DNA of 64,000 bases, taken from NCBI RefSeq assembly GCF_000027125.1, contig NC_017626.1; one strand, written 5' to 3'. Of the stretch, positions 27,125-64,000 are shown in pieces. Every line of letters begins with the position of its first letter. Position 1 is the first letter of the stretch. The DNA comes from Escherichia coli 042. GTDB taxonomy: Bacteria; Pseudomonadota; Gammaproteobacteria; Enterobacterales; Enterobacteriaceae. The notes below the pieces were generated by a model. That model made no database searches. It was not told the origin of the DNA and was given only the letters and a program-made list of their open reading frames with translations. A program made the position numbers and the translations under genes.

Positions 27125-27200
27125 GCCCGGATAGCTCAGTCGGTAGAGCAGGGGATTGAAAATCCCCGTGTCCTTGGTTCGATTCCGAGTCCGGGCACCA
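27125..27200 (+). tRNA. pheV: tRNA-Phe (anticodon GAA)
   Basis: GCCCGGATAGCTCAGTCGGTAGAGCAGGGGATTGAAAATCCCCGTGTCCTTGGTTCGATTCCGAGTCCGGGCACCA; 76 nt, CCA end, GAA anticodon in loop. Confidence 0.95.
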
Positions 27201-27209
27201 AATTCATAT

Positions 27210-27238
27210 AAACGGACCTCCACGGAGGTCCGTTTTTC
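27210..27238 (+). terminator. hairpin terminator after pheV
   Basis: aaacggacctcc-acg-gaggtccgttttt. Confidence 0.5.
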
Positions 27239-27397
27239 GTTTCAGGACACCACAATTTAAGCGTTCTGCCTAAAAATCATTTCTACCGAACTCAACCAGA
27301 TTCCCCCCACATCAACCTCATTGTGTGGGTATAATTGCGGGTATACCCCAGTTCGACAGAATTTGTACCCTCTTTAACGCATTCAGAAGGCTGAACT

Positions 27398-28663
27398 ATG
27401 GCACTGACTGACGCAAAAATCCGGGCAGCAAAGCCTACTGACAAGGCTTATAAACTCACTGACGGGGCTGGCATGTTCCTGCTGGTACATCCTAATGGTT
27501 CCCGTTACTGGCGTCTCCGTTATCGTATTCTGGGTAAGGAGAAGACTCTGGCACTTGGTGTGTATCCAGAAGTTTCTCTCTCCGAAGCTCGTACAAAACG
27601 GGATGAGGCCCGAAAACTGATTTCAGAGGGGATTGACCCTTGCGAACAGAAAAGAGTTAAAAAAGTAGTCCCTGATTTACAGCTCTCTTTTGAACATATT
27701 GCACGACGCTGGCATGCCAGTAATAAACAATGGGCACAATCACACAGCGATAAAGTACTCAAAAGCCTCGAGACACACGTTTTCCCCTTTATCGGCAACC
27801 GGGATATCACAACACTCAATACCCCGGACCTGCTTATCCCTGTTCGTGCTGCAGAAGCAAAACAAATTTATGAAATCGCCAGTCGTCTGCAGCAAAGAAT
27901 ATCTGCTGTAATGCGTTACGCCGTACAGTCTGGCATCATCAGATATAACCCGGCTCTGGATATGGCTGGTGCATTGACCACGGTAAAACGCCAGCATCGC
28001 CCCGCTCTGAATCTTTCACGCCTGCCTGAACTTCTGTCGCGTATTGACGGTTATAAAGGCCAGCCTGTCACCCGGCTTGCCGTTATGCTGAATTTACTGG
28101 TTTTTATTCGTTCCAGTGAACTCAGATATGCCCGCTGGTCTGAAATTGATATTGACAATGCCATGTGGACTATTCCAGCCGAACGCGAACCTCTGCCTGG
28201 CGTAAAATTCTCACACCGGGGCTCCAAGATGCGGACACCACATCTTGTGCCACTCAGTAAACAGGCTGTAGCCATACTGACAGAACTTCAGACATGGGCA
28301 GGTGAAAATGGTCTGATATTTACGGGTGCACATGACCCGCGTAAACCAATCAGTGAAAATACTGTAAATAAAGCCCTGAGGGTGATGGGGTATGACACAA
28401 CCCGGGATGTCTGTGGTCATGGGTTCCGGGCGATGGCATGTAGTGCGTTAATAGAATCAGGTTTGTGGTCCCGCGATGCTGTTGAACGTCAGATGAGCCA
28501 TCAGGAACGTAACGGTGTACGTGCTGCTTACATTCATAAAGCAGAACATCTGGAAGAACGCCGCTTGATGCTACAATGGTGGGCCGATTTTCTGGATGCA
28601 AACAGAGAAAGATTTATCAGTCCATTTGAATATGCAAAGATTAATAATCCATTAAAACAGTAA
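27398..28663 (+). CDS. P4-type tyrosine integrase (site-specific recombinase)
   Basis: 421-aa ORF starting 200 bp after tRNA-Phe; N-terminal MALTDAKIRAAKPTDKAYKLTDGAGMFLLVHPNGSRYWRLRYR and C-terminal HGFRAMACSA...RAAYIH catalytic region typical of P4-like integrases. Confidence 0.9.
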   Translation: MALTDAKIRAAKPTDKAYKLTDGAGMFLLVHPNGSRYWRLRYRILGKEKTLALGVYPEVSLSEARTKRDEARKLISEGIDPCEQKRVKKVVPDLQLSFEHIARRWHASNKQWAQSHSDKVLKSLETHVFPFIGNRDITTLNTPDLLIPVRAAEAKQIYEIASRLQQRISAVMRYAVQSGIIRYNPALDMAGALTTVKRQHRPALNLSRLPELLSRIDGYKGQPVTRLAVMLNLLVFIRSSELRYARWSEIDIDNAMWTIPAEREPLPGVKFSHRGSKMRTPHLVPLSKQAVAILTELQTWAGENGLIFTGAHDPRKPISENTVNKALRVMGYDTTRDVCGHGFRAMACSALIESGLWSRDAVERQMSHQERNGVRAAYIHKAEHLEERRLMLQWWADFLDANRERFISPFEYAKINNPLKQ

Positions 28664-28981
28664 TCATCCCGGGCAAATGCCCGGGAACTTACTCCATGAA
28701 TATTTTCTTTGTTAAAAAGACAAAATGGTATTAACTGATGTATTTACTGTTTACCTGATTGTTCCCTGGAGGAGGATTATCAGAATCTGCGGTTATTCAT
28801 TATTTATATTCAATGAAAAAGTAACCTCATAAAAAAACTCACTCACAGAGTGATGCGGGATAACTGACGTAAGGAATACTGCCGGGATTTGGTGGTCCCT
28901 TGTGCTGATATGAATACGGATTCTGTTTTATACAGAATACTTTTCAGTACAAGCAACTGTATTACAGTTTGCCATATATGA

Positions 28982-30481
28982 TTACCTGTGGTCCGGAAGA
29001 ATAAGCGGCTGCGGTTTCAGACTGTCTTCCTGTACATACCTCTCTCCGTTAAAAACCATAATGCGTTCATTATCTTCGTCTGTCAGTGGATTGAATGGCG
29101 GTATATTTTCGGTACGAATACCGGTCAGCCACTGAAAAATACCTGTGAAATGACGGGCACTGATTTTTCTGCTGAGGGACTGATGAGAGGTTATATCACT
29201 GGCGGTAATAATCAGGGGCACGCTGTAGCCTCCCTGCACATGACCATCATGATGAACAGGATTAGCACTGTCGCTGACCGACAGCCCATGGTCAGAAAAG
29301 TAAAGCATGGCGAAATGACGTGAGTGTCGGCGAAGGATACCATCAAGCTGACCAAGAAAGTTATCCAGTTTACTGATGCTGGCAAGATAACAGGCAATTT
29401 TTCGGGAATACTGCTCCAGGTAATTATTCTGCCAGGAGTGAAGCCGATCACACGGGTTCGGATGAGACCCCATCATGTGCAGGAAAATCACCTTCGGAGT
29501 GGATGTATCTGCCAGCGCACGTTCTGTTTCCTGTAACAACAACATGTCATCCGTTTTACGGGAAGCAAAGCTGCCTTTCTTGAGGAAAACAGTATGGTCC
29601 GCATCAGAAGCAATAACAGAGATGCGTGTGTCATGCTCTCCCAGTTTTCCCTGATTGGATATCCACCATGTGCTGTATCCTGCTTTTGCTGCCAGCGCCA
29701 CCACGTTGTTGCCGGAATCAGGGTTCTGCTCATAGTCATAAATCAGTGTCCGGCTCAGGGAAGGCACGGTGCTGGCTGCTGCCGATGTATAACCGTCAAT
29801 AAATAAACCGGGAGCCGTATTCAGCCATGGTGTGGTTGGCTCGGGATAACCATATACCGACATATAATCCCTGCGGACACTCTCACCAGTAACAATAACA
29901 ATCGTGTCATATAATGGTGCTCCCGGCAGGATTTTCCAGCTGTCAGCACCGTGCCGACTCAGTTGTTCATAACGCTGCATTTCACGCAATGTGTCAGTTG
30001 TCCCCACAACTGTTCCTTTAACCATCCGTAACGGCCAGCTGTTTACAGAGCATAATACGAATAACAACAGAGCCATCGCGTTACGTTGACCACGGTGGTG
30101 TGTCCGCCAGAAAATAACCATGAACACCAGAATCGCGGCACTGACCAGAAAATGATAAACAGGAATCATCCCGGTAAACTCCGCAGCCTCATCCGCCGTG
30201 GTCTGCAACAACGCGACAATAAAACTGTTGTTGATTTTTCCGTACGTCATACCGACAGGTGCATACAGTGCACAACAGAACAGAAATAACAGAGCTGTAA
30301 TGGATGTAAGGGTATTTCTGTGTGCAAGAATCAGAAGGAGAAACAGCAGCAACACATTCCCGGTGGCATTCTTCTCAGTGTATCCGCATGCGGCAGTGGT
30401 TATTACACACATGCCCGGGAAGAATAAAAACAATAAAATCCGGGATATATTGTCCGTATAAAACAGCTTTCTGATATTCAT
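28982..30481 (-). CDS. membrane phosphoethanolamine transferase / sulfatase-family protein (EptA/YhbX-like)
   Basis: 499 aa; N-terminal multi-TM region followed by alkaline-phosphatase-superfamily motifs (TGESVRRDY, HMMGSHP, SDHG). Confidence 0.6.
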   Translation of the reverse strand: MNIRKLFYTDNISRILLFLFFPGMCVITTAACGYTEKNATGNVLLLFLLLILAHRNTLTSITALLFLFCCALYAPVGMTYGKINNSFIVALLQTTADEAAEFTGMIPVYHFLVSAAILVFMVIFWRTHHRGQRNAMALLLFVLCSVNSWPLRMVKGTVVGTTDTLREMQRYEQLSRHGADSWKILPGAPLYDTIVIVTGESVRRDYMSVYGYPEPTTPWLNTAPGLFIDGYTSAAASTVPSLSRTLIYDYEQNPDSGNNVVALAAKAGYSTWWISNQGKLGEHDTRISVIASDADHTVFLKKGSFASRKTDDMLLLQETERALADTSTPKVIFLHMMGSHPNPCDRLHSWQNNYLEQYSRKIACYLASISKLDNFLGQLDGILRRHSRHFAMLYFSDHGLSVSDSANPVHHDGHVQGGYSVPLIITASDITSHQSLSRKISARHFTGIFQWLTGIRTENIPPFNPLTDEDNERIMVFNGERYVQEDSLKPQPLILPDHR

Positions 30482-30632
30482 CGGAGTATATCGACAACAT
30501 TATTGTGAAGAGAATAAAAATCAGAAGTCTCCTGTGAAACAGATAACAGACAACCCTGCAGTATAATTACTGCAGGGAGTCTTCGTTTAATTACAGAAGA
30601 TGGGTAATTATTATCTTTCAGGAGCAGTTTTG

Positions 30633-31373
30633 TCAGAAGTTATAAGTCACACCAAGCATGATGTCATGACTTTTAACATCAACTTCTGATTTATATTTAT
30701 CGCCCCACTCGTCCTTGTAACTCACACTGCTGTCACCTGCATCAAGATAGCGATAGCTGAGGTCCAGAGCGATATCCGGGGTTACGTCATAGCGGACACC
30801 CGCGCCAAAGCTCCATGCGAAGTTGTCAGCAGAGCCTGAACGTGACAACGATTCGCGACCACTGCTTCCGTACCCATAATCCCAGGTACTGATACCGGTT
30901 GTTTTCTGGTGAATTCTGGCGTAGCCAATCCCTGCAGATACCCATGGTGTGAATGCACTGTCATTCCGGAAGTCATAGTACGCATTCAGCATCAGTGTGT
31001 TGACTGACACCTCATTCTTCAGGTCATCACGCCAGTAACCGCCTGACCAGCTGTCTTTATCTACGTTATACTTCGAATCAGCTTTTCCACGAGCGTAAAA
31101 CTCCAGTTCCGTACGAACCGGAATACTGAACTGCGGGTAAAAATCATAACCGGCCGCGATACCGCCACTGAATACCGTATCATGGCCATCACCGCCTTTA
31201 TATTTTGATGTTTCCTCTCCATCACCCGACAGGAAACGCTGGTCTGCAAGTGACATAACAGAAGCACCTGCTTTACCGGTCACATAAAAGCCTGTTTTGC
31301 TCTCATCAGCCAGAGCCTGGGTCGAAAACATGCCTGCCATGGCAAGCGCTGAAACCGCAATAACCTTATTCAT
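30633..31373 (-). CDS. outer-membrane beta-barrel protein (possibly opacity/Tia-Hek-like adhesin family)
   Basis: Signal peptide MNKVIAVSALAMAGMFSTQALA, alternating aromatic/hydrophilic strands, C-terminal ...LGVTYNF beta-barrel signature; subfamily uncertain. Confidence 0.55.
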   Translation of the reverse strand: MNKVIAVSALAMAGMFSTQALADESKTGFYVTGKAGASVMSLADQRFLSGDGEETSKYKGGDGHDTVFSGGIAAGYDFYPQFSIPVRTELEFYARGKADSKYNVDKDSWSGGYWRDDLKNEVSVNTLMLNAYYDFRNDSAFTPWVSAGIGYARIHQKTTGISTWDYGYGSSGRESLSRSGSADNFAWSFGAGVRYDVTPDIALDLSYRYLDAGDSSVSYKDEWGDKYKSEVDVKSHDIMLGVTYNF

Positions 31374-31597
31374 TTCAATCATCTCCGCTATCACTTTCCC
31401 CGAACGATAAATGGGGTTGCTCATTCTAAAACCATGCAAAAGATAGGGTAAAAGGAATGTTTTCGATCGAATCGATCGATAAAATCGATCGTACCCGATA
31501 AAGTTTTCTTATCGTACCCATAAAAATGGTAAGGGCTGGTTTAAGAGGTAATCGCAGCGGCATGGAAGTATTAAGACCAAAACAGCACGAGATAAAG

Positions 31598-31781
31598 CGG
31601 CTGAACGTCAGATGAGCCACATGGAACGTAATTCATTAAGGGCGGCTTATATCCATAAAACAGAACACCTGGAATAGCGTCGGTTGATGCTACAGTGGTG
31701 GGGGGATTTTCTGGATACAAACTCGAAAGAAAATACCAGCCCCTTTGAGTATACGAAGATTAACAATCCATTAAAATATTA
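31598..31781 (+). pseudogene. integrase 3' end remnant (duplicated C-terminal fragment of P4-type integrase)
   Basis: Nucleotide stretch ctgaacgtcagatgagcca...ttgatgctacagtggtgg...attttctggata...aatccattaaaa is clearly homologous to 28481..28663 (end of the intact integrase) but carries an in-frame TAG; followed by a similar ccgggca-loop-tgcccgg hairpin. Confidence 0.7.
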
Positions 31782-32010
31782 AGCACTCCGGGCAATCTGC
31801 CCGGAGTGCTTTAGCTGGCATAACGGGCTACTGATCTCCTCTGGTTACAGATAACGACTTCAGCCCTCTGAAAGAGAAAAGCGGAAGCTCAGGAAGGTTG
31901 TGATTTGCTTTTAACCTTTTTAATTTAGAAGTATTATTTTGAGATTAATCCACTTCCCATCGTCATCCTTTTTGGTGTGCGTGAAAAGCTATTTTTAAGG
32001 TTACTGCCTC

Positions 32011-34320
32011 ATGGAGTTATGGATATTTATAGTAGCTATTTATTTGATTTATATTCTTTTTTTCAAAAAGAAGAAAACTAAGTCCGCGGGCTCTTATACT
32101 TCCGCTCCTGTGAAAGCACCACCTAAAGAATGGCTTGCTAACAACAAAAAAAATCAGTCTGTAATGCAAAACGAGGACAGCGAAGATGACAATCTGGCTA
32201 CGTTTACACTAAGTGGCGGGCGGAATGTCGAATACAGCATAACAGCCACTCAACGCCAGAATTTCTCAAAAACTACCGGTGCTTTGGCTCGTTGGATTTT
32301 TCCGGGAGAGATGATCACAGTCAGTGGGATAGAGGTTACCGGCGGTCACTTCTATCTTGGGCAGCGTATGAAACCTGCCGGGCATAACTCAGGCGGTTAT
32401 TATGATGGCAATAACGAGGCATCGCTAGTTGACGACACGCTTAAAATATACCCCACACCTTACATTTACGAAGATAGTTCATTAGGGTATTGGCCCAGTT
32501 TTTCCTCACTTTCACCTGAAGCTCGTGGTGCGTACCTGAGTTGGCTTGCCAGCGACAGATGCGACACTTCCTGCCCAATTGGTTACGTTTTCATTTATCT
32601 GTATGGTCTGGAAAGAAGGGCGCTTGTTGACAGCAGGGACAACAATATATCCGACGATGAGTTCTATTCTCTTTTCAAAGAGATCTGCCGTCTCAGATCG
32701 GTTTTCAATGAAAACCGATCTTTCCGGAATTACTCATCCCAGTTACTTGAAGCGATGTCCATTCTTCGTCCGAACGAAAATCTTGCAGCAGCTCTCAACG
32801 ATGATTCGGAGTTCAGCAATAGCATGCAGTTCAGGTTAATCCTGGCAAAGACTGTTGATACAGGAGCCCCGGTTCCAGCGGATCTGGCTCTGACGTGGGT
32901 GACAAACCATGCTGAATACTCATTACGAACCCCCGCCCGCCGCTGTGCGAAAGAATTTGCTGCACTATTTAAACGGCGTTACACCCTTAAATACGGTGAA
33001 GGGATGGTAGTGAAGCCGAATAAAGCGCGTCTGCGTTTAGATTACACGCCTGCAAGTCCCAGTTTGCGAGGTATTCGGCTTCCTGTTCCCGACTTGCCTG
33101 ATCCAGGTGCATTGAAAGGCCCTGTTCAGAAGCTTATGGCCATTGCCGATATATGCACAGGTGAACTGGATGCTTACAGTCGTTACCTTGGTAGAAAAGG
33201 TACTTCAGCAAATGATACCGCTGCAATTTTGTTGCTGCCTTCAGAAATCGTTAACGAAAGCGCAGAAAAAATATTAAGTACATTCAAACACTGGGCTGAT
33301 GACGCAATCCGCAGTAAGGGTGGGATAGTTTCAGTTGCTGACTACTGGTCACATATGAATGCCACCTGTCCGGCGAAGATCAATAAAAAAGAGGCCGACT
33401 TAATGCAAGCCTTTGCACAGAAAATGGGATACTGTCTGGCTCCTGACCCCTATCACCACCACGTAAAGGCAGATGTCGATGGTGTACTTGTTTTATTCCC
33501 TGCTGGTGAAAGAGGACGTTTCTCACCTTCTCCTGAATTTATCACAGCTGTATTGACGCTCCGATTAGGTTCGGTAGTCGCCTTGATTGACAATTCTCTC
33601 GATCAAGCCGAACAGAAAGTGCTTGAGAATGCCATCAACAACAATGCCAGCTTCAGCGATGATGAAAAGCGCTCTCTGCACGCATATTTAACGTGGCAGC
33701 TTCATACTCCGGCGAATATGACGGGAATGAAAAGCCGGATTGAATTACTCGGTGCAGCGGAAAAATCAGCTGTGGGTAAGGTTATCGTTAGTGTCGCTTG
33801 CTCTGACGGCAGAATTACGCCTGCCGAAATCAAACAGCTTGAGAAGATTTATACAAGCCTGGGACTGGATCCCTCATCCGTATCAAGCAATATCCATCAG
33901 CATTCCGCAACTGAAACTGCTCTCGTTTCATCTGTACCAGCTAATCAGTCGACGGCAGGGTTTACGCTGGATGCCAACGTACTTGCCCGCCACGAATCTG
34001 CCACTGATGATGTTCGTAAATTACTGAACTCAATTTTCACTGAAGAAGAACCAGAACAACCAGAAAGCGCTCCAGCCTCATTAACCGGGGAAGGGGGACT
34101 TGACTCCGCTCATAGCCAACTTTATCGCAGGTTGCTGGAGAAAGAACAATGGTCCAGAAAAGAGGCGACAGAGTTGTGTAGTAACTGGAACCTGATGCTC
34201 GGCGGTGCGCTTGAGGTGATTAACGATTGGTCCTATGCGGTGGTTGATGCACCAGTGCTGGAAGATGCTGATGATCACATTTGGATTGACCTGGAAATAG
34301 CCAAAGAATTAGAGGGTTAG
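32011..34320 (+). CDS. TerB-domain membrane-anchored protein (Shango SngA-like)
   Basis: 769 aa; N-terminal TM helix (MELWIFIVAIYLIYILFF), region with GYVFIYLYGLERR and a later ...VSVACSDGRITPAEIKQLEKIYTSLGLD block that I recognise as TerB-N / TerB-like; first gene of a tightly packed three-gene operon. Confidence 0.6.
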   Translation: MELWIFIVAIYLIYILFFKKKKTKSAGSYTSAPVKAPPKEWLANNKKNQSVMQNEDSEDDNLATFTLSGGRNVEYSITATQRQNFSKTTGALARWIFPGEMITVSGIEVTGGHFYLGQRMKPAGHNSGGYYDGNNEASLVDDTLKIYPTPYIYEDSSLGYWPSFSSLSPEARGAYLSWLASDRCDTSCPIGYVFIYLYGLERRALVDSRDNNISDDEFYSLFKEICRLRSVFNENRSFRNYSSQLLEAMSILRPNENLAAALNDDSEFSNSMQFRLILAKTVDTGAPVPADLALTWVTNHAEYSLRTPARRCAKEFAALFKRRYTLKYGEGMVVKPNKARLRLDYTPASPSLRGIRLPVPDLPDPGALKGPVQKLMAIADICTGELDAYSRYLGRKGTSANDTAAILLLPSEIVNESAEKILSTFKHWADDAIRSKGGIVSVADYWSHMNATCPAKINKKEADLMQAFAQKMGYCLAPDPYHHHVKADVDGVLVLFPAGERGRFSPSPEFITAVLTLRLGSVVALIDNSLDQAEQKVLENAINNNASFSDDEKRSLHAYLTWQLHTPANMTGMKSRIELLGAAEKSAVGKVIVSVACSDGRITPAEIKQLEKIYTSLGLDPSSVSSNIHQHSATETALVSSVPANQSTAGFTLDANVLARHESATDDVRKLLNSIFTEEEPEQPESAPASLTGEGGLDSAHSQLYRRLLEKEQWSRKEATELCSNWNLMLGGALEVINDWSYAVVDAPVLEDADDHIWIDLEIAKELEG

Positions 34321-34323
34321 TGA

Positions 34324-35640
34324 ATGTCTGTAACACGTATAAGAGTGAAAGAGCGCGACGCTATCATTCAGTCACTTAAGTCGGGAGTAACGCCAAGAAT
34401 AGGTATTCAGCATATCCAGGTTGGCCGCGTGAATGAGATAACCGCCCTCCATCAGGATATTGAACGGATTGCTGATGGCGGGGCAAGCTTCAGACTTATC
34501 ATTGGTGAGTACGGTTCCGGGAAAACATTCTTTTTAAGTGTTGTACGGTCTATTGCGTTAGAGAAGAAGCTGGTCACGGTCAGTGCAGACCTTTCTCCCG
34601 ACAGACGTATCCACTCATCGGGAGGTCAGGCTCGTAATCTCTACTCAGAGCTTATGAAAAATATGTCCACCAGAAACAAACCAGATGGCAATGCATTACT
34701 TAGCGTTGTGGAAAGGTTTGTTACTGAGGCAAGGAAGGAAGCTGATGCGAACGGCTCCCTGGTCTCATCCGTTATTCATAAACGCCTTGCTGCTTTGTCA
34801 GATATGGTGGGAGGATATGACTTTGCGAAGGTCATTGACGCATTCTGGCGCGGGCATGAGCAGGATAACGAAACCTTAAAATCCAATGCTATTCGCTGGT
34901 TGCGGGGCGAGTACACCACAAAAACTGATGCCCGTAATGATCTTGACGTCCGAACGATTATCTCAGACGCCTCGTTCTATGATTCTTTGAAGTTGATGAG
35001 CCTTTTTGTCCGTCAGGCAGGCTATGCCGGACTTTTAGTTAGCCTCGACGAGATGGTGAACCTCTTCAAGTTGAATAATACGCAAGCGAGAACGGCCAAC
35101 TACGAACAAATTTTGCGGATTCTGAATGACTGCCTGCAAGGCTCCGCCGAAAATATTGGTTTTATCCTCGGGGGGACGCCAGAATTTCTTTTCGATCCAC
35201 GTAAGGGGCTCTACAGCTATGAAGCGCTCCAGTCGCGTCTGGCAGAAAACCGATTCGCACAGAAAGCTGGCGTGATTGACTACTCGTCCCCCACGCTGCA
35301 TCTTGCCAGCCTCACTCCTGAGGAACTGTATATTTTACTGAAAAACCTTCGTCATGTTTATGCTGGTGGAGATCCCGTAAATTATCTGGTGCCAGATGAT
35401 GCTCTGACCGGGTTTCTGCATCACTGCAGCAAAACCATCGGAGATGCTTACTTTCGAACTCCCCGCAATACCATAAAAGGTTTTCTGGATATGCTGGCTG
35501 TGCTGGAACAAAACAGAACGATGAACTGGCAACCCCTCATTGAGGGGGTGGCGATTGAAGAAGACAAGCTCAGCGATATGGATGATGCCATTGTGGAGGA
35601 AAGTGATGACGATGATGGCCTGGCGAATTTCAGATTATGA
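34324..35640 (+). CDS. P-loop ATPase (Shango SngB-like)
   Basis: 438 aa; Walker A GEYGSGKTF, Walker B LLVSLDEM; starts 4 nt after upstream stop and overlaps downstream start. Confidence 0.65.
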   Translation: MSVTRIRVKERDAIIQSLKSGVTPRIGIQHIQVGRVNEITALHQDIERIADGGASFRLIIGEYGSGKTFFLSVVRSIALEKKLVTVSADLSPDRRIHSSGGQARNLYSELMKNMSTRNKPDGNALLSVVERFVTEARKEADANGSLVSSVIHKRLAALSDMVGGYDFAKVIDAFWRGHEQDNETLKSNAIRWLRGEYTTKTDARNDLDVRTIISDASFYDSLKLMSLFVRQAGYAGLLVSLDEMVNLFKLNNTQARTANYEQILRILNDCLQGSAENIGFILGGTPEFLFDPRKGLYSYEALQSRLAENRFAQKAGVIDYSSPTLHLASLTPEELYILLKNLRHVYAGGDPVNYLVPDDALTGFLHHCSKTIGDAYFRTPRNTIKGFLDMLAVLEQNRTMNWQPLIEGVAIEEDKLSDMDDAIVEESDDDDGLANFRL

Positions 35641-37835: not shown

Positions 37836-37851
37836 ACTGGATATGTAGTCA

Positions 37852-37884
37852 GGGTATAAATAAGTATTTATACCCTTATTTTTT
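37852..37884. terminator. hairpin terminator after helicase gene
   Basis: gggtataaata-agt-atttataccc followed by ttatttttt. Confidence 0.5.
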
Positions 37885-38915: not shown

Positions 38916-38935
38916 TAATACCTGTTACCTGAATA

Positions 38936-39244: not shown

Positions 39245-39283
39245 AACATTAACTCACTGAAATAATATACATATATGACGGTC

Positions 39284-50441: not shown

Positions 50442-50476
50442 CGACAAAACTCCTTACAAAGTTACACCAGTGGATT

Positions 50477-53840: not shown

Positions 53841-53992
53841 AATAGCTCCTCTTACTCACACTTTTCCTGTAATACCTTCACTGATTAACCGAAACGCTAT
53901 AATCAAAGCCAGAAAATACAGAGTCCTGTCAAAATAGTATCAGCGATGCATTTACCCCGTAATTTACAATTATCTCTGTATCTTCAGAGGTA

Positions 53993-54445
53993 CTACGTTT
54001 TATGCAGCCGCTCAGGGATGTATGTCACAATTTTCTTTCGCCTGCTTAACCATCGTACTTCTCCTTCCCCCCATGGCTGAAGCTGTATGAGATAGTCAAT
54101 AACTTTTCGACCAAAGCCTGGTTTACAACAGAAATCCAGGATCCAGATCCTTCCATCTTCATTCCATTCAGACGGATGCAACCTGAATTCTGGATCCCTG
54201 AGCAGGCGCGCTTCCGTATCAGCCTCAAGATATGCCCAGGTTATATACGCCAGTGGAAAACCTCGTGAATCAAACAGGAATTTAATCTGATTATGCTGTA
54301 TCGCATATTCAGTCCAGTATTGAATGGTTAACACCGGATACAGACTGTAATTACGATTGTAGAGCATACAACTGACCGCAAAACCTATCTGTTCATAAAC
54401 AGTCCATTCATCTTTTCCTCTGATGGTTTCCCTTATATAAGACAT
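53993..54445 (-). CDS. mchD: microcin maturation protein (MchD/MceI-like)
   Basis: 150-aa ORF between mchC and mchE in the canonical mchCDEF order. Confidence 0.55.
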   Translation of the reverse strand: MSYIRETIRGKDEWTVYEQIGFAVSCMLYNRNYSLYPVLTIQYWTEYAIQHNQIKFLFDSRGFPLAYITWAYLEADTEARLLRDPEFRLHPSEWNEDGRIWILDFCCKPGFGRKVIDYLIQLQPWGEGEVRWLSRRKKIVTYIPERLHKT

Positions 54446-54470
54446 GATTACTATTTCCCTTATATATTTA

Positions 54471-56021: not shown

Positions 56022-56291
56022 CTGGCAGTATTCTCCGTTTTAATTTTCATAAAAGAGTGTTCATAAAAGAGCAAGTAAGTGTCCTGACAGCTTCTTCCTT
56101 ATTACAGTAAAACTCTATTAATTACACATAAATTAATAATTATTTATCAACGACTGTAAATCATATCTTCATCAGTAAAGTGTTGAACATAAAAACACAC
56201 TTATAAATGGATCTTCTATCTGCTTTAAACGAAAGGGATATATTTTACAGGCACTATCGAAAAAGTGCCTGTAAAATAAATAAAATTATAA

Positions 56292-56519
56292 TTAGCTACC
56301 GCCACCAGCAGAAGAACTGGCACTACCACTTCCCACGGTCGAGCCAATTGCTGTTGTCAAACCGGCAGATACGGCTCCAACTACAACCCCAAGTGGACCA
56401 CCAGGTATTCCGGCGAGAGCTCCAACAATAGCTGCAGCACCTGCGGCATTAGCTGAAGTCGCTGGCGCACCTCCCGCCCCGGAAATATATCTTAACTGTG
56501 ATTCTGTTATTTCTCGCAT
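56292..56519 (-). CDS. mchB: microcin H47 precursor
   Basis: MREITESQLRYISGAGGAPATSANAAGAAAIVGALAGIPGGPLGVVVGAVSAGLTTAIGSTVGSGSASSSAGGGS; recognised as MchB; track ORF starts 22 codons upstream. Confidence 0.85.
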   Translation of the reverse strand: MREITESQLRYISGAGGAPATSANAAGAAAIVGALAGIPGGPLGVVVGAVSAGLTTAIGSTVGSGSASSSAGGGS

Positions 56520-56535
56520 ATAAACTCCATCATAT

Positions 56536-56745
56536 TTAACTTCCGTTTTTCCAGCCTGACCAGACCAGAATCTTTCGAATCCCATGAATCAGCTCAATAA
56601 AACCAAGAAATATTATAAAGCTTAGAAAAACGTCAACATAAGAATTCCCTTCGCCAACAATCCGAAGGGATGAAAGTGAAACCAATAAGATAGTAAGAGG
56701 TAAACTAAATATAGCCGTCAATTGGTACAGTTTTTTATAACTCAT
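56536..56745 (-). CDS. mchI: microcin H47 immunity protein
   Basis: 69-aa hydrophobic ORF MSYKKLYQLTAIFSLPLTILLVSLSSLRIVGEG... directly upstream of mchB. Confidence 0.8.
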   Translation of the reverse strand: MSYKKLYQLTAIFSLPLTILLVSLSSLRIVGEGNSYVDVFLSFIIFLGFIELIHGIRKILVWSGWKNGS

Positions 56746-57156
56746 TAATACCTACCTGTTGCTTTATTTTCATTATGAAAAGTTACCAAATCTTAGCGCT
56801 TCAGTCAGGGGAGTCAGGTCATCGATAAAGAATATTCCAGTAGAGTGGCGCTCATGATCAAAGACAACAGCAAAGTTGATGACAGTGCTGACCGACTGTC
56901 ATTTACAGTAACCCTGTTTGTAGCAAATTCCATCTTACCAGACCTCACCCAGACAAAGACAAAAGAGAATGATTGTTATTTACTTTTCAAAAAAAGTGTC
57001 ATATTGTCCATATAAAGTCAAGAGGTATTTTACGTTATGTAACTGATGCAATTGTTAGTCAGGATCTCATGGTTGTCGCTCATGTATAACCTGAGACTTG
57101 AACGTACACTAATAGCACTGACGGTCATACATCGGGAAATGTGAGGAGGCATAAGA

Positions 57157-57402
57157 ATGAATTGTGATAATAATCACAGAAATGAAGAATTCATTGTTAC
57201 CTTTGATAAAGGCAACAAGCAAGACAATTCAAGACGAAAACACGATAATTTTCCTATAGAGGTAGAATCCTCCGTAGAGCTGGAGACACACTGTATCACA
57301 AATAATAAGTCGGCTTCCGGTATAGTAACACATGACTATGATGCCGATTATATTTGTGGTTGTGGTGAAATTATGTGTCCTGGTTGCGGTCATGACCTAT
57401 AA
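57157..57402 (+). CDS. small Cys-motif peptide (81 aa), function unknown
   Basis: ORF ending ...YICGCGEIMCPGCGHDL (CxC-x5-CPGC); located between the mchXIB and I47 modules. Confidence 0.3.
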   Translation: MNCDNNHRNEEFIVTFDKGNKQDNSRRKHDNFPIEVESSVELETHCITNNKSASGIVTHDYDADYICGCGEIMCPGCGHDL

Positions 57403-57556
57403 CAAACATATTTGCAAACTGATACCTGATCAGGTACAAGCCTGTTGATTATTATGCTGAATATTCCAGTTATCAATCCATCGATATGAACATTAACAAG
57501 AAAAAACATATATTGTTTATCTGAATATTTATCGATGGAAAACCAAAGGGGAAAGT

Positions 57557-57991
57557 ATGTATCTTACGAAAAAGATTATAATAAGTATGATGTTTATATT
57601 ACCATCTGCTGCATTTTCATCAGATCCACCTCCCCTTCAACAATCGTTAGAAAAAACAACCTATTTTTCTATAGGTATGAATGGGTTTATAGGCTATCAG
57701 AGCGAAGGGGAAAAATTATACACACACATTCTTACATTAGATAATCCCGAAGAGATATTTAAAAATATAATAAAAAATAGAAAGTCAACTAAGGAGTCTA
57801 AAATTTATGCTGCTTGTGGGCTATATTATTTAAACGTAGAAAATATAGAGTCATTGTTTAATGAAAATGATAAACAAGAATATGTGTCTGTCTTAAGAGG
57901 GGATATTTTAACAAAAATAAAACTGAATGATATTCTGAATTCTGTGATAATAAATGGTTGCAACACCAAATTAATATCTGAACATAAATGA
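57557..57991 (+). CDS. secreted protein upstream of microcin I47 gene (possible immunity/accessory protein)
   Basis: 144 aa with signal peptide MYLTKKIIISMMFILPSAAFS; precedes the I47 precursor by 16 nt; AT-rich codon usage. Confidence 0.4.
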   Translation: MYLTKKIIISMMFILPSAAFSSDPPPLQQSLEKTTYFSIGMNGFIGYQSEGEKLYTHILTLDNPEEIFKNIIKNRKSTKESKIYAACGLYYLNVENIESLFNENDKQEYVSVLRGDILTKIKLNDILNSVIINGCNTKLISEHK

Positions 57992-58007
57992 GCAGGAGGT
58001 TTTTAAA

Positions 58008-58241
58008 ATGAGAGAAATATCAGATAACATGCTTGATTCCGTGAAAGGAGGGATGAATCTTAATGGATTACCTGCTTCTACTAATGTAATAGATCTACGT
58101 GGAAAAGATATGGGAACATATATTGATGCTAATGGAGCATGCTGGGCTCCGGATACTCCATCCATCATCATGTATCCGGGGGGAAGTGGACCTTCTTATA
58201 GTATGAGTAGTTCCACATCCAGTGCAAACAGCGGCAGTTAA
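58008..58241 (+). CDS. mchS2: microcin I47 precursor
   Basis: MREISDNMLDSVKGG double-glycine leader, Ser-rich C-terminus ...SMSSSTSSANSGS. Confidence 0.6.
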   Translation: MREISDNMLDSVKGGMNLNGLPASTNVIDLRGKDMGTYIDANGACWAPDTPSIIMYPGGSGPSYSMSSSTSSANSGS

Positions 58242-58529
58242 ATAAATACCATCCGGCTATGCCGGAGGGTATTTATGATGTGCCTGTAAGACTCTACTTC
58301 TGTCGTCTCTTTACAAAGGCATATGATCTGACATTTTGTACCAGACATCTTAACGAGAGCCTTTTCATATATTACTTACATACGTGAAATCTACAGTATA
58401 AAGCAAAAATTTTATTAAACCTGTTTTATATTTATCATCAATACAACAGATTTAATTCCGGAAAGTCACTCATCACCCCTTGAATGAACGTCATTTGATG
58501 TATTATTCTTACACTTGGATTAATTTAAG

Positions 58530-59804
58530 ATGATACCTATGAAAAACTATCTTTTCCAGACTCCCGAAGATATTTGTGTACAGTTAAAAAAAATGACACA
58601 TCCTGTCACAATAAGAACAACAGATATTGCTAATTTCTGGCACTATCTTGAGTCAGCAACTCTTCCGGTGATCACAAAAAGCACCACTACAGAAAATCGG
58701 GAGGTTACATTTCTGTGGCGCTCAGAGAAAGCAGTGCAAGGCGTATATCTTCGCCTGAATCGTGTTACAGATAAAAAAGATGTCAAAAAAGGACTAATGA
58801 CTCATATCCCTTCGACAGATATCTGGATGCTGACACTGGTGTTACCAGCTTCATATCGGGGCTCATACTCATTTATAGAAATTCCCACAGATATGACACA
58901 AAAAGACATATTTCAACTAGGAAGTCGCTTCTCTCCATTACCCGGTAAATCTGATCCATTTAACAAAACAGCAGAAATAAATATACGAGGATTCGGAGAA
59001 TCAGTCCTTTCTCTTGATATGGCTCCTGAACAAAAGGAATGGGATGATACTTCCCATAAATGTACAGGTATTCTTTCAACATTACATTCCTTTGTTGCAG
59101 GATATCAACGCCGGATTCGTTTATATTTTCCCCAGAATCCAACATCAGTACCTCTTGGATTACTTGTGTTACCTGATGCTGAAATATGGTTTGACCGGAT
59201 GGATATTACCCGGGCATTAGATATGGCCATTACCACTGGTCATATTGCGCCAATGGCAATTATGGGGATAGACAATATTAATGAATCTGATCGTATGAAT
59301 ATACTGGGAGGCAATAAAGAACTTATCTTTGATATAGCGGAAAATCTGATACCCCAGTTATACAGAGACTACCCGAATATCGTATGGGCTGGTCGTTCTA
59401 ATACTATACTGGCCGGTCAGAGCCTCGGTGGAGTGACAGCACTGATGGCAGCTATATATGCGTCGACAACATTTGGTACAATCATTAGCCACTCACCTTC
59501 AATGTGGTGGAACCCTGACCAGGGCAGCCCGATTTTGTTTACTGAGAATGATATCTCCTGGGTAAGTGAGCAGATACTTTCAGCGCCTCCGAAAGATGTA
59601 AATATCCAACTTGGAGTCGGTTCTTTAGAAGGTACAACCGTCTCACATGTTCAGCGGTTGCATCAGTCGTTAATCGCAGCAGGTTTGGAAAGTAACCTCA
59701 CTGTCTATGCCGGTGGTCATGATTATGCCTGGTGGCGCGGAGCAATTATTGATGCATTAGCAAATTATAATTGCAGGAAGATATCAGATAATAACTTTGT
59801 GTAA
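58530..59804 (+). CDS. mchS1: enterobactin/salmochelin esterase (IroD/Fes-like)
   Basis: 424 aa; alpha/beta-hydrolase GQSLGG nucleophile motif; position next to the IroB-like glycosyltransferase. Confidence 0.65.
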   Translation: MIPMKNYLFQTPEDICVQLKKMTHPVTIRTTDIANFWHYLESATLPVITKSTTTENREVTFLWRSEKAVQGVYLRLNRVTDKKDVKKGLMTHIPSTDIWMLTLVLPASYRGSYSFIEIPTDMTQKDIFQLGSRFSPLPGKSDPFNKTAEINIRGFGESVLSLDMAPEQKEWDDTSHKCTGILSTLHSFVAGYQRRIRLYFPQNPTSVPLGLLVLPDAEIWFDRMDITRALDMAITTGHIAPMAIMGIDNINESDRMNILGGNKELIFDIAENLIPQLYRDYPNIVWAGRSNTILAGQSLGGVTALMAAIYASTTFGTIISHSPSMWWNPDQGSPILFTENDISWVSEQILSAPPKDVNIQLGVGSLEGTTVSHVQRLHQSLIAAGLESNLTVYAGGHDYAWWRGAIIDALANYNCRKISDNNFV

Positions 59805-59952
59805 GCGATTATCTCATCGTACCGATAACGCTTTCTGCAACATTATAACGGGAGACATACTCATTTATTTAGTTATGTCCTTCATCATATAAGTGAAGGA
59901 CATTCTATTACTCATGACATTTTTCGTCGATAATATCAGCAATACTATACAA

Positions 59953-61071
59953 TTATTTCCCGTTGTTTTTTAATTTTCTCATCAAAACCTCTGCGATCTC
60001 TGCAGGACTGGGTTGTTCAGCCATTTCAGCGGCTACCTGATCTGAACAGAAGCGTAGTGAATCATCATAAAGCAGGCGATTTACCAAATCACTGGTCAGT
60101 CCATGCTTGTCCGGAATAATCCCACACCCACGCATCGCAACAATTTCTGCATTAACAGAGCGATCTGCACCTTCGCCAAACACAATCTGTGGTATCCCAC
60201 TATACAACGCTGTCAGGGTATTACCTGCGCCACCATGATGAATAAATCCATCAGCTCCATTAAGGAATACACCCATAGGTATCCAGTCAACCAGACGTAC
60301 ATTTGATGGTAGTTTTCGTAATCCAGTACGAGCATTTATTGCAAGTTGCAAAATGATATCAGCATCAACTTCATTTGCAGAATCCATAACCCATGAAATC
60401 AGCTCCAGACCATCAACCATTGGTTTTACAGTGCCAAGGCTGATGAGTAAACGTTTTCGATCAGAATCCCTGTCCCACCATGTTTCCTTTACAGCACCTC
60501 CGTTATAAGGAATATATCTCATTGAGATAACCGGTTCTTCAGCATTTTTAAGAATGCTCATACTTGGGGGAGCAACATCAATCCATGCTAAATCACATAG
60601 TGGACCGCTGACTCCATGCCGCCTGTAAGCATTGCTTAAAGAACGGTTTAACATCTGAATATGGGCAGATGTATGCGCGAATCCAACAGCCAGCATCACT
60701 GAAGGAATTCTATATTTAGCAGCAACCAATGGGCCTGCCGGACCAAGCGGGGGATAGACTATTAAATCTGGCCTCCATTTTCCTGCAAAATCGATGAGGT
60801 TATCTGCCATTTCATCGCTAAAAAAAGAGAAATGACCAATAATATTACTTTTTTTCCTCAACTCTTCCTGATGGCGATATCCAGCCTCTGAATCTAAACT
60901 TGGAACTGCATCAAAAACAACCAGTCCAGCTTCTGCTGCTTTATTCGCGAATTTGCCAGCACTACTAATTACTACATCATGTCCGATTACACGAAAGGCC
61001 TGAGCCAGAGAAATCAATGGGTATAACAAACCGTACAGCGGTGGGCCAATAAAAAGAATACGTTTTCGCAT
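59953..61071 (-). CDS. mchA: enterobactin C-glucosyltransferase (IroB-like GT1)
   Basis: 372 aa; GT1 signature HHGGAGNTLTALYSGIPQIVFGEGADRSVNAEIV. Confidence 0.7.
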   Translation of the reverse strand: MRKRILFIGPPLYGLLYPLISLAQAFRVIGHDVVISSAGKFANKAAEAGLVVFDAVPSLDSEAGYRHQEELRKKSNIIGHFSFFSDEMADNLIDFAGKWRPDLIVYPPLGPAGPLVAAKYRIPSVMLAVGFAHTSAHIQMLNRSLSNAYRRHGVSGPLCDLAWIDVAPPSMSILKNAEEPVISMRYIPYNGGAVKETWWDRDSDRKRLLISLGTVKPMVDGLELISWVMDSANEVDADIILQLAINARTGLRKLPSNVRLVDWIPMGVFLNGADGFIHHGGAGNTLTALYSGIPQIVFGEGADRSVNAEIVAMRGCGIIPDKHGLTSDLVNRLLYDDSLRFCSDQVAAEMAEQPSPAEIAEVLMRKLKNNGK

Positions 61072-61419
61072 TAAAAAAGTCCGTCTTCTGCTTACCTGTT
61101 TATTTTTCTATCGCTAAGAAAACATAATTAATATTATTTTTATGTGAGCTTATGCACAAAAATAACCAAGTATCTTATCTTCTGGTAGAGATACAGGATA
61201 CAGTTTGTAGGAGCTTTCTTTTTTGAACAATGAGTTACAGGACAGTTATGCCAACCTACCGGAATCAGTATCACACCAATAAATGACAGATCATACCTGA
61301 AATTTGAATTAACAGGCATCATGAATGTCAATAGTCTAAGCGGTTACTACTTACATCGCTTGCATAAATACTAAACACTGACTAGAAAAGTATTGGATAA
61401 CCCCGTCACTAAAAGTAAC

Positions 61420-61514
61420 GCTTCGGTTATTTGCACAGAATACGACTCCTTCAGACTCTGTTGAATTTTGTTAAGCCGGTGCAGACACACGGGAAGGTGC
61501 GCATCAACACCGGT
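61420..61514. repeat. right copy of ~95-bp imperfect direct repeat (contains truncated 5' end of a 48109..48657-like gene)
   Basis: Shares gcttcggttatttgcac / tgttgaattttgttaagcc / gtgcagacaca / gcgcatcaacacc blocks with 48641..48732; the minus-strand reading VQITEA... here stops after 19 codons. Confidence 0.7.
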
Positions 61515-61705
61515 GTAATGCCAGTTATAAACAATGTGAATGGAATGACGAATCAGTCAGGAAAGAGCTACAACCTGCTGGCTGACCGGAGAGGGTCAGC
61601 AGGAAAATGAACGGTAATGTCGCCAGCACCAGGGACAGGGCTGATTTCCGCAATACCAGCGCCGGCATTTTGCACATTGCCAGCGTACCGGCATCACAAC
61701 ACGTT

Positions 61706-61942
61706 TCATGCTGCTGCTCCTCGTGATTCCTCAATTCGCTGCTGCATCCACTGCTCCACTTCACTTTTGTACCAGCGGCTGCTGCGGCCCAGCTTGATGG
61801 GTTTCGGGAAATGGCCTTCACTGATCAGCTTGTAAAACCATTTATCTGTCATACCGGTGAAACTGGTGATGTAGTTCATGTCGATCAGGGGATCGTCGGC
61901 ACGCAGCAACACGCAGTCGTGGCCTGTCATTGAGGTCAACAT
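61706..61942 (-). CDS. alpA: AlpA-family phage/island transcriptional regulator (excisionase-like HTH)
   Basis: ...MTDKWFYKLISEGHFPKPIKLGRSSRWYKSEVEQWMQQR matches the AlpA/Vis HTH family; true start probably internal. Confidence 0.6.
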   Translation of the reverse strand: MLTSMTGHDCVLLRADDPLIDMNYITSFTGMTDKWFYKLISEGHFPKPIKLGRSSRWYKSEVEQWMQQRIEESRGAAA

Positions 61943-62010
61943 GGTCAGAATATCCTCTGTGAGATTTATGAAGGTTGTGCGAATGCGGGGAAAGGTGCTG
62001 AGCCGTATTC

Positions 62011-62718
62011 TCAGAACGGTCCTGCAGATCCGGGATAGCCGGGATTACCGGCGAGGCAACGGGCTTCCGGATCGCACACACCACGACGATCGCGGGCGAA
62101 ATCACTGAACGCCCAGATCAAATCTTTGAGGATGTCTTCGCAGTCCGGTGAACGACTGTCCAGCACCACATCCCGGGTTATCTGTTTCTGGTACGGTGCC
62201 GCTTCCCCCGGTGACGCGAAGCCCAGTACGTTGCTCCAGGCATCCAGAATCAGCCGGTCCAGTTCGGGGCCGTCGAAATACTCCTGTCTGACGCACAGCA
62301 CCACGTGGTATTCCGGCTTTTCCGGATGACGGGTCAGGAGCCAGCAAAGGTCGCGTCCGGGTTTCGCATTCATCAGCGCACTGACGGTTTCGATAAAATC
62401 CATACCAAACCAGGTCTGTCTGCTGTTGAAGGCGTTGTCATGTTCCCACGGCAGACGAAGCAGGATCCGCCGTATCCGTGAGCCGGACTGCTCACGCAGC
62501 GCACGCTCAAGGACGCCGATGACTTTGTTCTGATAAGATGGCCAGAAGGGTGCCAGGCTATAGTCGAAATAAGGAATAGCATTCATAAGATATGTTCCGT
62601 TATGCGCAGCCCACAATGCGTCCTGCCCGTGAATGAGCTGACGTGTTATGGCTTGCGGATGAGATTGATGGAATAAGTGAAGAACTGAAGCAGAACGGGA
62701 AGATAAGGGACAGAACAC
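62011..62718 (-). CDS. hypothetical protein (island-associated, YfjI-position)
   Basis: 235-aa ORF upstream of alpA on the same strand; no motif recognised. Confidence 0.4.
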   Translation of the reverse strand: MFCPLSSRSASVLHLFHQSHPQAITRQLIHGQDALWAAHNGTYLMNAIPYFDYSLAPFWPSYQNKVIGVLERALREQSGSRIRRILLRLPWEHDNAFNSRQTWFGMDFIETVSALMNAKPGRDLCWLLTRHPEKPEYHVVLCVRQEYFDGPELDRLILDAWSNVLGFASPGEAAPYQKQITRDVVLDSRSPDCEDILKDLIWAFSDFARDRRGVCDPEARCLAGNPGYPGSAGPF

Positions 62719-62832
62719 CGGATTCAGGTTCAGGATGAATGATCTCCGTTGACTTCAGTTCACATCATTAATCAATGCGGTAAGTTTTTACCGACGGAGT
62801 GTTTCCAGGAGCGGAGGCTCAGGCCTTAAGCT

Positions 62833-63399
62833 TCAGAAGTGAGGCTTACGAGGACGCCCTGCAGCAGGACGTTCAGGAACTTCATTGCAGCCGTAGGCAC
62901 ACAGCCCGTCTTTTTGTTCTTCTTTCGCCAGATAATGCAGGGCACCGCGAATATTATCGATGCTTTCAGGATCGTTGTGGCGCACAGGAATGTTGATGTT
63001 GTATGCATAATGCGGCTGATATGTACAGCGGTGCGCCGAACCACAGTTATACGTAATTGCCTGCCAGCATTCCGCTATCCGCTCCGCAAAGGGATATATT
63101 TTTTTAACCCTCTGACGATCGATCCAGAAAACGACATGCGCATGAAAACCATGATCAGCCGTCCATTCAATCACCCAGAAGAAACCAACGATATTTTCAA
63201 ATTGTTCCACCTGCTCCAGCAGCATACGCAACTGCAATTCAAGCCAGCGATGATCAGGTTGTAAGAAATCAGGCGTATCTTTCCTGTAGAAGAAATCCAT
63301 GCGTAAGGCCCGCAGGCAGGAATAGCGTGCCATCATTTGATTGATGTGATTGTCAAGTAAAGCGGTAAAAAACCAGTTTGGTGTGTAAGATTTAGGCAT
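62833..63399 (-). CDS. inovirus Gp2-family (YfjJ/YagK-like) protein
   Basis: 188-aa ORF with ...WVIEWTADHGFHAHVVFWIDRQ... block resembling Gp2-family proteins of CP4-type islands (from memory). Confidence 0.45.
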   Translation of the reverse strand: MPKSYTPNWFFTALLDNHINQMMARYSCLRALRMDFFYRKDTPDFLQPDHRWLELQLRMLLEQVEQFENIVGFFWVIEWTADHGFHAHVVFWIDRQRVKKIYPFAERIAECWQAITYNCGSAHRCTYQPHYAYNINIPVRHNDPESIDNIRGALHYLAKEEQKDGLCAYGCNEVPERPAAGRPRKPHF

Positions 63400-64000
63400 G
63401 TTGATGACTCCTGAAAGTTAATGATGTTTTAAGCTCTGTGAACGAATTAATGCTTTCGCTCATAATCAGATCTAAAACGGTAATAACTTACAGATGGTAT
63501 TTATCAGGCATGCTGTAGCAGAATGGATACGACGGGTTATTAACGATACGCAGCATTATGCAGAAAGAAATGGATTATCTGATGGTATTAGCTAAAGAGA
63601 TGAGATAAACGAGGAGTAAAGAAAATACAGACTCAATAAAACATCACGAAATACTGCAAAATACGCGATAAAACACCACGACCAGAAGGTTAAGAAACAT
63701 ATTGCGACCAATCATAAACTACAAACTTGCTCTCAGTGGTTGTAAAAACCGTGTACAAGGCCAATGCAATAAACTTATATGCGCTCATTCAATCTGTTCT
63801 TAAGGACATGAACATTCACGGCTCACGATAGCAGAATAAAAAATACCACTGACATGATTTTCATCCTGCATCTTAGATAATACAACCCAGAACAAACATA
63901 ATCAGGAATCTCTCCTGTCAATTCCATTGTTTATCCAGCTCTGTTAATCGTTACAGAATCATGGATACCTTATCAAAAAGTAAACATTCGGTTAATCAGT

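Follow-up and report, generated by a model that had tools for sequence, protein, structure and literature searches.

The window analysed here, a stretch of 64,000 nucleotides from contig NC_017626.1 of Escherichia coli 042, contains a single tRNA gene, pheV, behind which the DNA up to the end of the window most probably belongs to one genomic island. According to our best explanation, positions 27201-64000 are the proximal ~36.8 kb of a composite island of ~54.5-55.8 kb, which was put into the 3' end of pheV by a P4-type integrase (probability about 0.9). The integrase would have recombined the tRNA gene with an attP core of the island that exactly matches the final ~23 nt of this gene; an intact tRNA would thereby have been restored at the left (attL, 27178-27200), and the core would have been duplicated at the distal end (attR). 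Here, attR would be a 22-nt variant lacking one G, located ~17.7-19.0 kb past the window and followed by the K-12-type sequence upstream of yghD. The features at the left junction are the following.

27125-27200, plus strand: pheV, tRNA-Phe(GAA), identified with ARAGORN and Rfam
27178-27200, plus strand: attL core, the left attachment repeat, corresponding to the last 23 nt of pheV, TTCGATTCCGAGTCCGGGCACCA
27210-27235, plus strand: terminator-like hairpin directly 3' of the tRNA, borne by the island and standing in for the K-12 pheV terminator
27398-28663, plus strand: intact P4-type tyrosine integrase of 421 amino acids with the Pfam domains Arm-DNA-bind_3, Phage_int_M and Phage_integrase

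The left junction and the search for a second repeat

In a BLAST alignment, the nupG-speC-yqgA-pheV region of K-12 MG1655 matched window positions 22765-27200 at 98.9% identity, and the alignment ended at the final base of the tRNA, position 27200 (the CCA end). This sets the left junction at 27200, in agreement with an earlier interpretation made from the letters alone (the sequence-only reading), which had let the conserved backbone stop at yqgA-pheV and had proposed an alignment with K-12 to define the junction. No match was obtained between positions 27201-64000 and the 40 kb downstream of pheV in K-12. The GC content is 0.48-0.54 in the backbone and 0.35-0.52 in the island, where it shows sharp local swings; these swings, together with modules of separate known kinds, bear out the description of the downstream DNA as accessory and of mosaic composition. 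The sequence of the hairpin at 27210-27235 is also found 3' of pheU in K-12, and 3' of the distal repeat in strain BEC1-S17-ESBL-09, which carries a near-identical island (see below).

The integrase gene starts 198 bp past the tRNA, as had been read from the sequence, and its placement in the P4 type is confirmed by its domains and by 54.9% identity to phage P4 Int over 97% of the length (E 2e-152). The protein keeps the motifs RSSELR (residue 238), HGFRA (341) and AAYIH (376), which hold the catalytic Arg, His-x-x-Arg and Tyr.

A perfect copy of the tRNA 3' end inside the window would have redefined the limits of the island. We searched both strands for suffixes of pheV between 12 and 30 nt in length, first allowing at most three substitutions and then as many as 4-5 edits, indels included. 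Exact matching and both of these searches returned only the tRNA itself, in keeping with the sequence-only reading, which had noticed no second copy in the window. In strain H3, the substitution-only search overlooked the distal repeat, which has a 1-bp deletion, while the indel-tolerant search recovered it; BLAST had shown that homology to K-12 resumes in H3 where the substitution-only search found nothing. Looking only for perfect matches of 20 to 23 nt, even across the full contig, would presumably have yielded nothing, because the distal repeat is imperfect (GGG to GG) in all relatives examined. The lesson is that the att repeats of tRNA islands may hold indels, and that exact or substitution-only searches overlook such repeats.

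The window also contains the remains of a second integrase, which raise the question of whether one or several islands are present.

31597-31795, plus strand: relic of a second P4-type integrase, of which ~60 C-terminal codons, interrupted by a stop, and the downstream hairpin remain

This relic is 77% identical to positions 28478-28676 (the 3' end of the intact integrase and its hairpin), and the region is annotated as an integrase pseudogene in H3. It could indicate a tandem array of at least two separable islands, in which an internal att site would limit the first island to ~27.2-31.5 kb. Moreover, the homology to module I of LAA (Locus of Adhesion and Autoaggregation), a pathogenicity island at pheV in those E. 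coli that make Shiga toxin (STEC) and lack LEE, the enterocyte effacement locus (Montero et al. 2017, PMC5539235), stops at 31476. Against an array stands the lack of any tRNA-derived repeat in 27201-64000 when 4 edits in 23 nt are allowed, also at 31.4-31.6 kb, and the relic is devoid of the N-terminal five-sixths of the gene, of the left-end sequence and of an att core. Furthermore, the junction between the relic and the Shango genes that follow it is conserved in 270 genomes, which identifies it as an old fusion (all genome counts given here refer to complete E. coli genomes). We therefore consider a tandem array very improbable. An internal att site beside the relic at 31.6 kb was rejected as a candidate, as the indel-tolerant search found none. 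No intact progenitor of the second island, with a complete integrase before Shango, was seen among the matches inspected. At 31464-31492, in the spacer upstream of the relic, the end of the LAA homology is spanned by an unusual series of palindromic motifs of the TCGATCGA type (ttcgatcgaatcgatcgataaaatcgatcg).

Related islands, exchange of cargo and mobility

The closest complete genome is that of H3 (NZ_CP028732.1), which shows 99.75% identity to window positions 27101-47000 and 99.99% to 45000-64000. Almost all differences are concentrated in two patches, with ~56 in yqgA and beside the tRNA (26.0-27.5 kb) and ~30 in ibrA (40.5-41.0 kb), which suggests short recombination tracts. Past the point that corresponds to the window end, H3 contains IS1414, IS30 and IS600 insertion sequence (IS) fragments, a second Gp2 gene, and then a CP4-57-like block that encodes a YfjP GTPase, DUF932, antirestriction, RadC/JAB, CbeA/CbtA and DUF4942 proteins. 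The distal repeat follows (positions 38002-38023 of the H3 segment L002) and reads TTCGATTCCGAGTCCGG-CACCA, which is 22 nt long and corresponds to the final 23 nt of pheV with one G missing. Directly after it come CTAATTCTTAAGAACCCGCC..., which is the K-12 sequence 3' of pheV, and yghD. The repeat ends at a window-equivalent position of ~83,022, 19.0 kb beyond the window, and the H3 island measures 55,822 bp. Just past yghD (L002 38708-38764), 23.8 kb of K-12 backbone is deleted in H3, from yghE to the 3' end of pitB and including the glc operon and yghJ.

At pheV of strain SA31-1 there is a sibling island whose head and tail are the same and which also has the 22-nt repeat before yghD; its middle differs, and it diverges from the window at ~47.92 kb. 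Past yghD, where H3 has its deletion, SA31-1 retains the full gspC-M cluster. In BEC1-S17-ESBL-09, an island that is 99.8-100% identical to the window is located at pheU, a tRNA-Phe gene identical to pheV, between dicD-pheU and cadC. It comprises 54,510 bp, lacks IS1414 and ends in the same 22-nt terminal repeat, which is followed by exactly the sequence that lies downstream of pheU in K-12, including the integrase relic yjdQ. A near-identical island in JE86-ST05 is also placed at pheU, before cadC, and ends in the same repeat. It lies in tandem behind an integrative and conjugative element (ICE) of the SPI-7/PAPI-1 type (ParA, DnaB-PI, ParB), and a 52-bp partial tRNA-Phe repeat is located between the ICE and the integrase of the island (L008 18401-18453). 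The 22-nt repeat TTCGATTCCGAGTCCGGCACCA is thus present in H3, BEC1-S17-ESBL-09, JE86-ST05 and SA31-1, and is followed by the sequence of the unoccupied site in H3, SA31-1 and BEC1-S17-ESBL-09. In the unoccupied site of K-12, pheV is directly followed by yghD.

At both pheV and pheU, the sequence of the unoccupied site comes directly after the distal repeat, which shows that an element with this tail was integrated site-specifically at each locus. The element is bounded by the tRNA end and the imperfect repeat, and it therefore represents an insertion. The sequence-only reading had stated that the island replaces the K-12 sequence downstream of the tRNA; accessory DNA is indeed present at pheV, but it was inserted rather than exchanged, as the K-12 sequence resumes after the distal repeat in H3 and SA31-1. 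Comparison of K-12 pheU (L010 692-1051) with window positions 27201-27400 revealed a decayed left end and the integrase relic yjdQ directly 3' of the tRNA gene. These remains show that pheU of K-12, which has no full island now, was once occupied by this island family.

The right junction of 042 is expected to resemble that of H3 and to lie 17.7-19.0 kb past position 64000. The repeat is predicted to end at ~81,700 if IS1414 is absent, or at 83,020 if it is present, and to be followed by CTAATTCTTAAGAACCCGCCCACAAGGCGGG and yghD. The earlier placement of the right junction beyond 64000 is consistent with this, as the window contains no further att core and the near-identical relatives end 17.7-19.0 kb past its last base.

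The distribution of four segments was examined among the 5426 complete genomes, counting matches with a query coverage of at least 80%.

1.2-kb junction yqgA-pheV-int: 3054 of 5426 genomes
25000-45000, including 2.2 kb of backbone: 253 of 5426 genomes
45000-64000, the microcin-bearing half: 99 of 5426 genomes
43700-50600, the bridge between the two halves: 5 of 5426 genomes

An integrase of this family directly follows yqgA-pheV in 56% of the genomes (3054/5426); in the other genomes recovered with the junction query, K-12 included, the match stops at the tRNA end. The bridge is carried by H3, BEC1-S17-ESBL-09, JE86-ST02 and JE86-ST05 at 99.9-100% identity, and by a fifth genome in which the match is partial and interrupted by an IS. 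Most carriers of the proximal half (~250 genomes) diverge at ~47.92 kb. An integrase-headed element is thus the majority state at pheV, and the exact combination of modules is rare (4/5426 at 99.9-100%).

With an integrase-headed element at pheV in more than half of the complete genomes, the segment could be imagined to be ancestral in E. coli and to have been lost by K-12, with no insertion. However, in the unoccupied K-12 site the tRNA is joined exactly to the sequence found behind the distal repeat of H3 and SA31-1, the same island is found at a second locus, pheU, and the DNA has an atypical mosaic GC content and contains an integrase and repeats. An ancestral segment has hardly any chance of being the correct explanation.

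A fixed and immobile mosaic is a possibility that we take more seriously, although we find it doubtful. In that case, the island would have spread and exchanged its cargo by homologous recombination through the common head (int) and tail after conjugation or transduction, and the integrase would have no role. The integrase family at pheV in 56% of the complete genomes would offer ample homology, sibling islands such as that in SA31-1 share the head and the tail but differ in the middle from ~47.92 kb, and the clusters of single-nucleotide polymorphisms (SNPs) relative to H3 resemble recombination patches. The imperfect distal repeat, the dead integrase and the IS debris in the island point in the same direction. 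However, the integrase is of full length and has its catalytic motifs, and the island in JE86-ST05 lies exactly behind the 52-bp tRNA repeat left by the ICE. In addition, both at pheV and at pheU the limits of the island coincide exactly with the tRNA end on one side and the 22-nt repeat on the other, behind which the sequence of the unoccupied locus continues. This is the signature of site-specific integration at each locus at some time. The siblings with another middle and the patches of SNPs show that cargo swapping between resident islands by homologous recombination does at least occur.

Several observations weigh against integration of the composite island at pheV by its own integrase. 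The right junction is located outside the window and is predicted from relatives, and its distance is either 17.7 or 19.0 kb, depending on whether IS1414 is present directly beyond the window. Of the four closest copies of the island, three are at pheU rather than at pheV, and 042 is not identical to any relative, with SNP clusters relative to H3 at 26.0-27.5 and 40.5-41.0 kb. With regard to mobility, the distal repeat is imperfect, the island contains a dead integrase and IS fragments, and there is no excisionase gene beside int, the sole AlpA-family gene being 34 kb away. The present island may still be able to excise, for which its precise limits at both pheV and pheU are indirect evidence. 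Movement of the entire ~54.5-kb patchwork in one piece between pheV and pheU, by means of its sole intact integrase and an attR with a one-base deletion, is unlikely today. In that reading, the deleted G always stays on the attR side at both loci, which would place strand exchange 3' of the GGG run; the defect would therefore travel with the island, and the tRNA would never be damaged.

Modules of the island

The composite island would have grown by the accretion of three modules: (i) a head with the integrase, a phosphoethanolamine (PEtN) transferase and a Hes-like adhesin, common to LAA; (ii) the remains of a second island, marked by the 200-bp integrase relic, from which Shango, PerC/IbrAB, a NERD/UvrD helicase and the type VI secretion relics would derive; and (iii) a core of the CP4-57 kind, starting with AlpA and Gp2, in which the 12.8-kb microcin H47 island is nested. 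The island joins colonisation, anti-phage and bacteriocin functions. The head contains two genes downstream of the integrase.

28982-30481, minus strand: PEtN transferase of 499 amino acids, a distant relative of CptA, EptA and MCR
30633-31373, minus strand: outer-membrane adhesin of 246 amino acids, Hes-like and belonging to the Hra/Tia/Hes family (NCBIfam Adr adhesin match)

The PEtN transferase scores 111 bits against the NCBIfam CptA subfamily, for which the cut-off is 404, and it falls far under the curated cut-offs of the CptA, EptA, EptB and MCR families. In this cassette, it may act as a surface-modifying enzyme outside the EptA, EptB, CptA and MCR equivalog families.

The second module begins with the integrase relic and includes a middle section at 37.9-48.6 kb, which extends into the conserved island core.

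32011-34320, plus strand: sngA (TerB), PADLOC SngA 8.6e-100
34324-35640, plus strand: sngB (ATPase), PADLOC SngB 3.8e-186
35637-37835, plus strand: sngC (DEAD/DEAH helicase), PADLOC SngC 1.2e-277
Within 37.9-48.6 kb, placed before the PerC gene: two hypothetical genes
38936-39205, minus strand: PerC-family regulator (H3 annotation; PHROG transcriptional activator)
39284-39922, minus strand: IbrB-like ParB-domain protein (H3 annotation)
39907-41139, minus strand: IbrA-like protein with a PAPS-reductase fold (PAPS-reductase, BrxP and DndC matches)
Between the IbrA gene and the type VI fragments: one hypothetical gene
42041-43388, minus strand: remains of type VI secretion genes, one fragment with a VasL domain and one from the N-terminus of TssA/ImpA (H3 annotation)
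43782-45569, minus strand: NERD and UvrD-like helicase of 595 amino acids (PADLOC C3a187, NERD+UvrD, 4.5e-140; weaker GajB matches)
45671-48657: IS fragment and conserved island-core genes, including DUF4222
47218-47841: ECs1377-family protein, conserved island core
48109-48657: 182-amino-acid protein, conserved island core

The three sng genes are co-oriented and abut or overlap each other, and each protein matches its PADLOC model over essentially the full model length. Positions 32011-37835 are thus predicted to encode a complete Shango anti-phage system. Strain AVS0366 carries this cassette, from 31872 onward, in an unrelated island rich in IS elements (L009), where it is 95% identical. 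The TssA fragment reaches 81.7 bits against TIGR03362, for which the cut-off is 230. The NERD/UvrD helicase, which is named "3'-5' exonuclease" in RefSeq, may be a candidate stand-alone defence gene. Searches of ten small or hypothetical open reading frames against PHROGs and NCBIfam added only the PerC-like, ECs1377-family, TssA-fragment and AlpA assignments.

The third module contains the microcin genes, the two imperfect direct repeats that flank them, and the first genes of the CP4-57-like core.

48614-48754, plus strand: imperfect direct repeat on the mcmA side (published attR)
50003-50224, minus strand: mcmA', truncated, 73 codons, without the serine-rich tail
50477-52573, minus strand: mchF (H3 annotation)
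52566-53840, minus strand: mchE
53993-54445, minus strand: mchD
54471-56021, minus strand: mchC
56292-56519, minus strand: mchB (H3 annotation)
56536-56745, minus strand: mchI (H3 annotation)
About 56814-56933, minus strand: mchX
57557-57991, plus strand: mchS3 (H3 annotation)
58008-58241, plus strand: mchS2 (microcin I47)
58530-59804, plus strand: mchS1
59953-61071, minus strand: mchA
61394-61538, plus strand: imperfect direct repeat on the mchA side (published attL)
61706-61942, minus strand: AlpA-family excisionase/regulator (Pfam Phage_AlpA 2.6e-10; PHROG excisionase families)
62011-62586, minus strand: hypothetical protein
62833-63399, minus strand: inovirus-Gp2-type protein (H3 annotation)

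Three of these genes are taken to be mcmA', mchX and mchS2 by their likeness to the published peptides. With mcmA truncated, microcin M is presumably not made here. A CPBP-type gene beside mcmA (49196-49807, plus strand) is frameshifted, as it is in strain H47.

The two repeats (~141 and 145 bp) share 74% identity in an alignment of 146 columns, rising to 80% in the core at 48623-48729, and their starts are 12,780 bp apart. No recombinase gene is present in the H3 annotation between the repeats at 48614 and 61538. We rebuilt the empty site by joining positions 47690-48690 to 61471-62470. All 2001 nt of the joined sequence were recovered as one uninterrupted piece, at 92.6-93.4% identity, in the matches listed, for example in UTI89, 536 and NU14, and the rebuilt site was matched at a coverage of at least 80% in ~620-630 complete E. 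coli genomes. Since the empty site is uninterrupted elsewhere, the microcin unit is an insertion into a conserved island core. The set of AlpA, hypothetical and Gp2 genes at 61706-63399 is the start of the CP4-57-like core.

Rfam identified nothing in the entire window besides the tRNA and one naRNA4, a nucleoid-associated RNA derived from repetitive extragenic palindromic (REP) sequences, which is located in the conserved backbone (15229-15299, minus strand) and scores barely above the gathering threshold. A scan of the island for tandem repeats returned trivial two-copy arrays only.

Comparison with known systems

The kind of element and all of its modules are already known, and there is nothing new among them. 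The value of the analysis lies in annotation hygiene: the left boundary is fixed, the right boundary is predicted, and 37 kb are split into named modules.

For the comparison with LAA, we used strain CFSAN002236 (the hes reference in PMC6455142), of which the first 32 kb of LAA (L005) were compared directly. At the amino acid level, the integrase is 98.1% identical to that of LAA, the PEtN transferase 92.5%, and the outer-membrane protein is 89.4% identical to Hes (described in PMC5539235). Homology at the DNA level covers window positions 27000-28657 and 28993-31476, where it ends. LAA is likewise inserted between yqgA and yghD, which is also the site of the relatives of this island at pheV, and it is likewise a modular mosaic, whose tail is CP4-57-like and at whose far end the 3' end of pheV is repeated imperfectly over 23 bp (PMC5539235). 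The cut-off for calling hes is >90% identity and coverage (Montero et al. 2019). At the DNA level, positions 28993-31476, which also take in the PEtN transferase gene, are 90.07% identical, and at 89.4% in amino acids the adhesin appears to be a Hes variant just under the 90% cut-off. In contrast to LAA, the ato operon and the IS66 that bounds module I are absent here, as are the iha, btuB and porin genes of the first 32 kb of LAA, and the place of the remainder of module I is occupied by Shango, IbrAB and the microcin H47 island. Judged against those first 32 kb, module I up to IS66 was not recovered, nor were modules II-IV (iha/lesP, pagC/tpsAB and ag43). Filing the island as LAA was therefore rejected, as only the first 4.3 kb are common to both.

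The island resembles P4 and the CP4-57-type prophages of K-12 in its P4 integrase family, in its integration at the 3' end of a tRNA gene, and in the core genes AlpA, Gp2, YfjP GTPase, antirestriction and CbtA/CbeA, of which those beyond the window are known from H3. It differs from P4 in that no P4 replication or capsid-size genes were seen here. Furthermore, the target is tRNA-Phe instead of tRNA-Leu or ssrA, and the cargo consists of virulence, defence and bacteriocin genes.

Shango (SngABC) is an anti-phage system composed of a TerB protein, an ATPase and a helicase (Millman et al. 2022, bioRxiv 10.1101/2022.05.11.491447). The operon in the window has the same three genes, for a TerB-domain protein, an ATPase and a DEAD/DEAH helicase, and no difference was detected; the system is known here from its genes.

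The microcin H47 genomic island has been described as a 13-kb unit flanked by repeats of 148 and 144 bp with 76% identity, without a recombinase of its own (Azpiroz, Bascuas and Lavina 2011, PMC3191183). The same study reported it in enteroaggregative E. coli (EAEC) 042 and found that islands of other pathogenic E. coli contain unoccupied attC sites. Its excision is independent of RecA and of 16 site-specific recombinases of K-12 (2017, PMC5426353). The unit in the window has the same gene content, mchA-S1-S2-S3-X-I-B-C-D-E-F with truncated microcin M genes, as in E. coli H47 and EAEC 042, a similar size (~13 kb published, 12.8 kb here), imperfect flanking repeats and no recombinase. No structural difference was found, and the unit is nested here in the pheV island, beside the AlpA-family gene.

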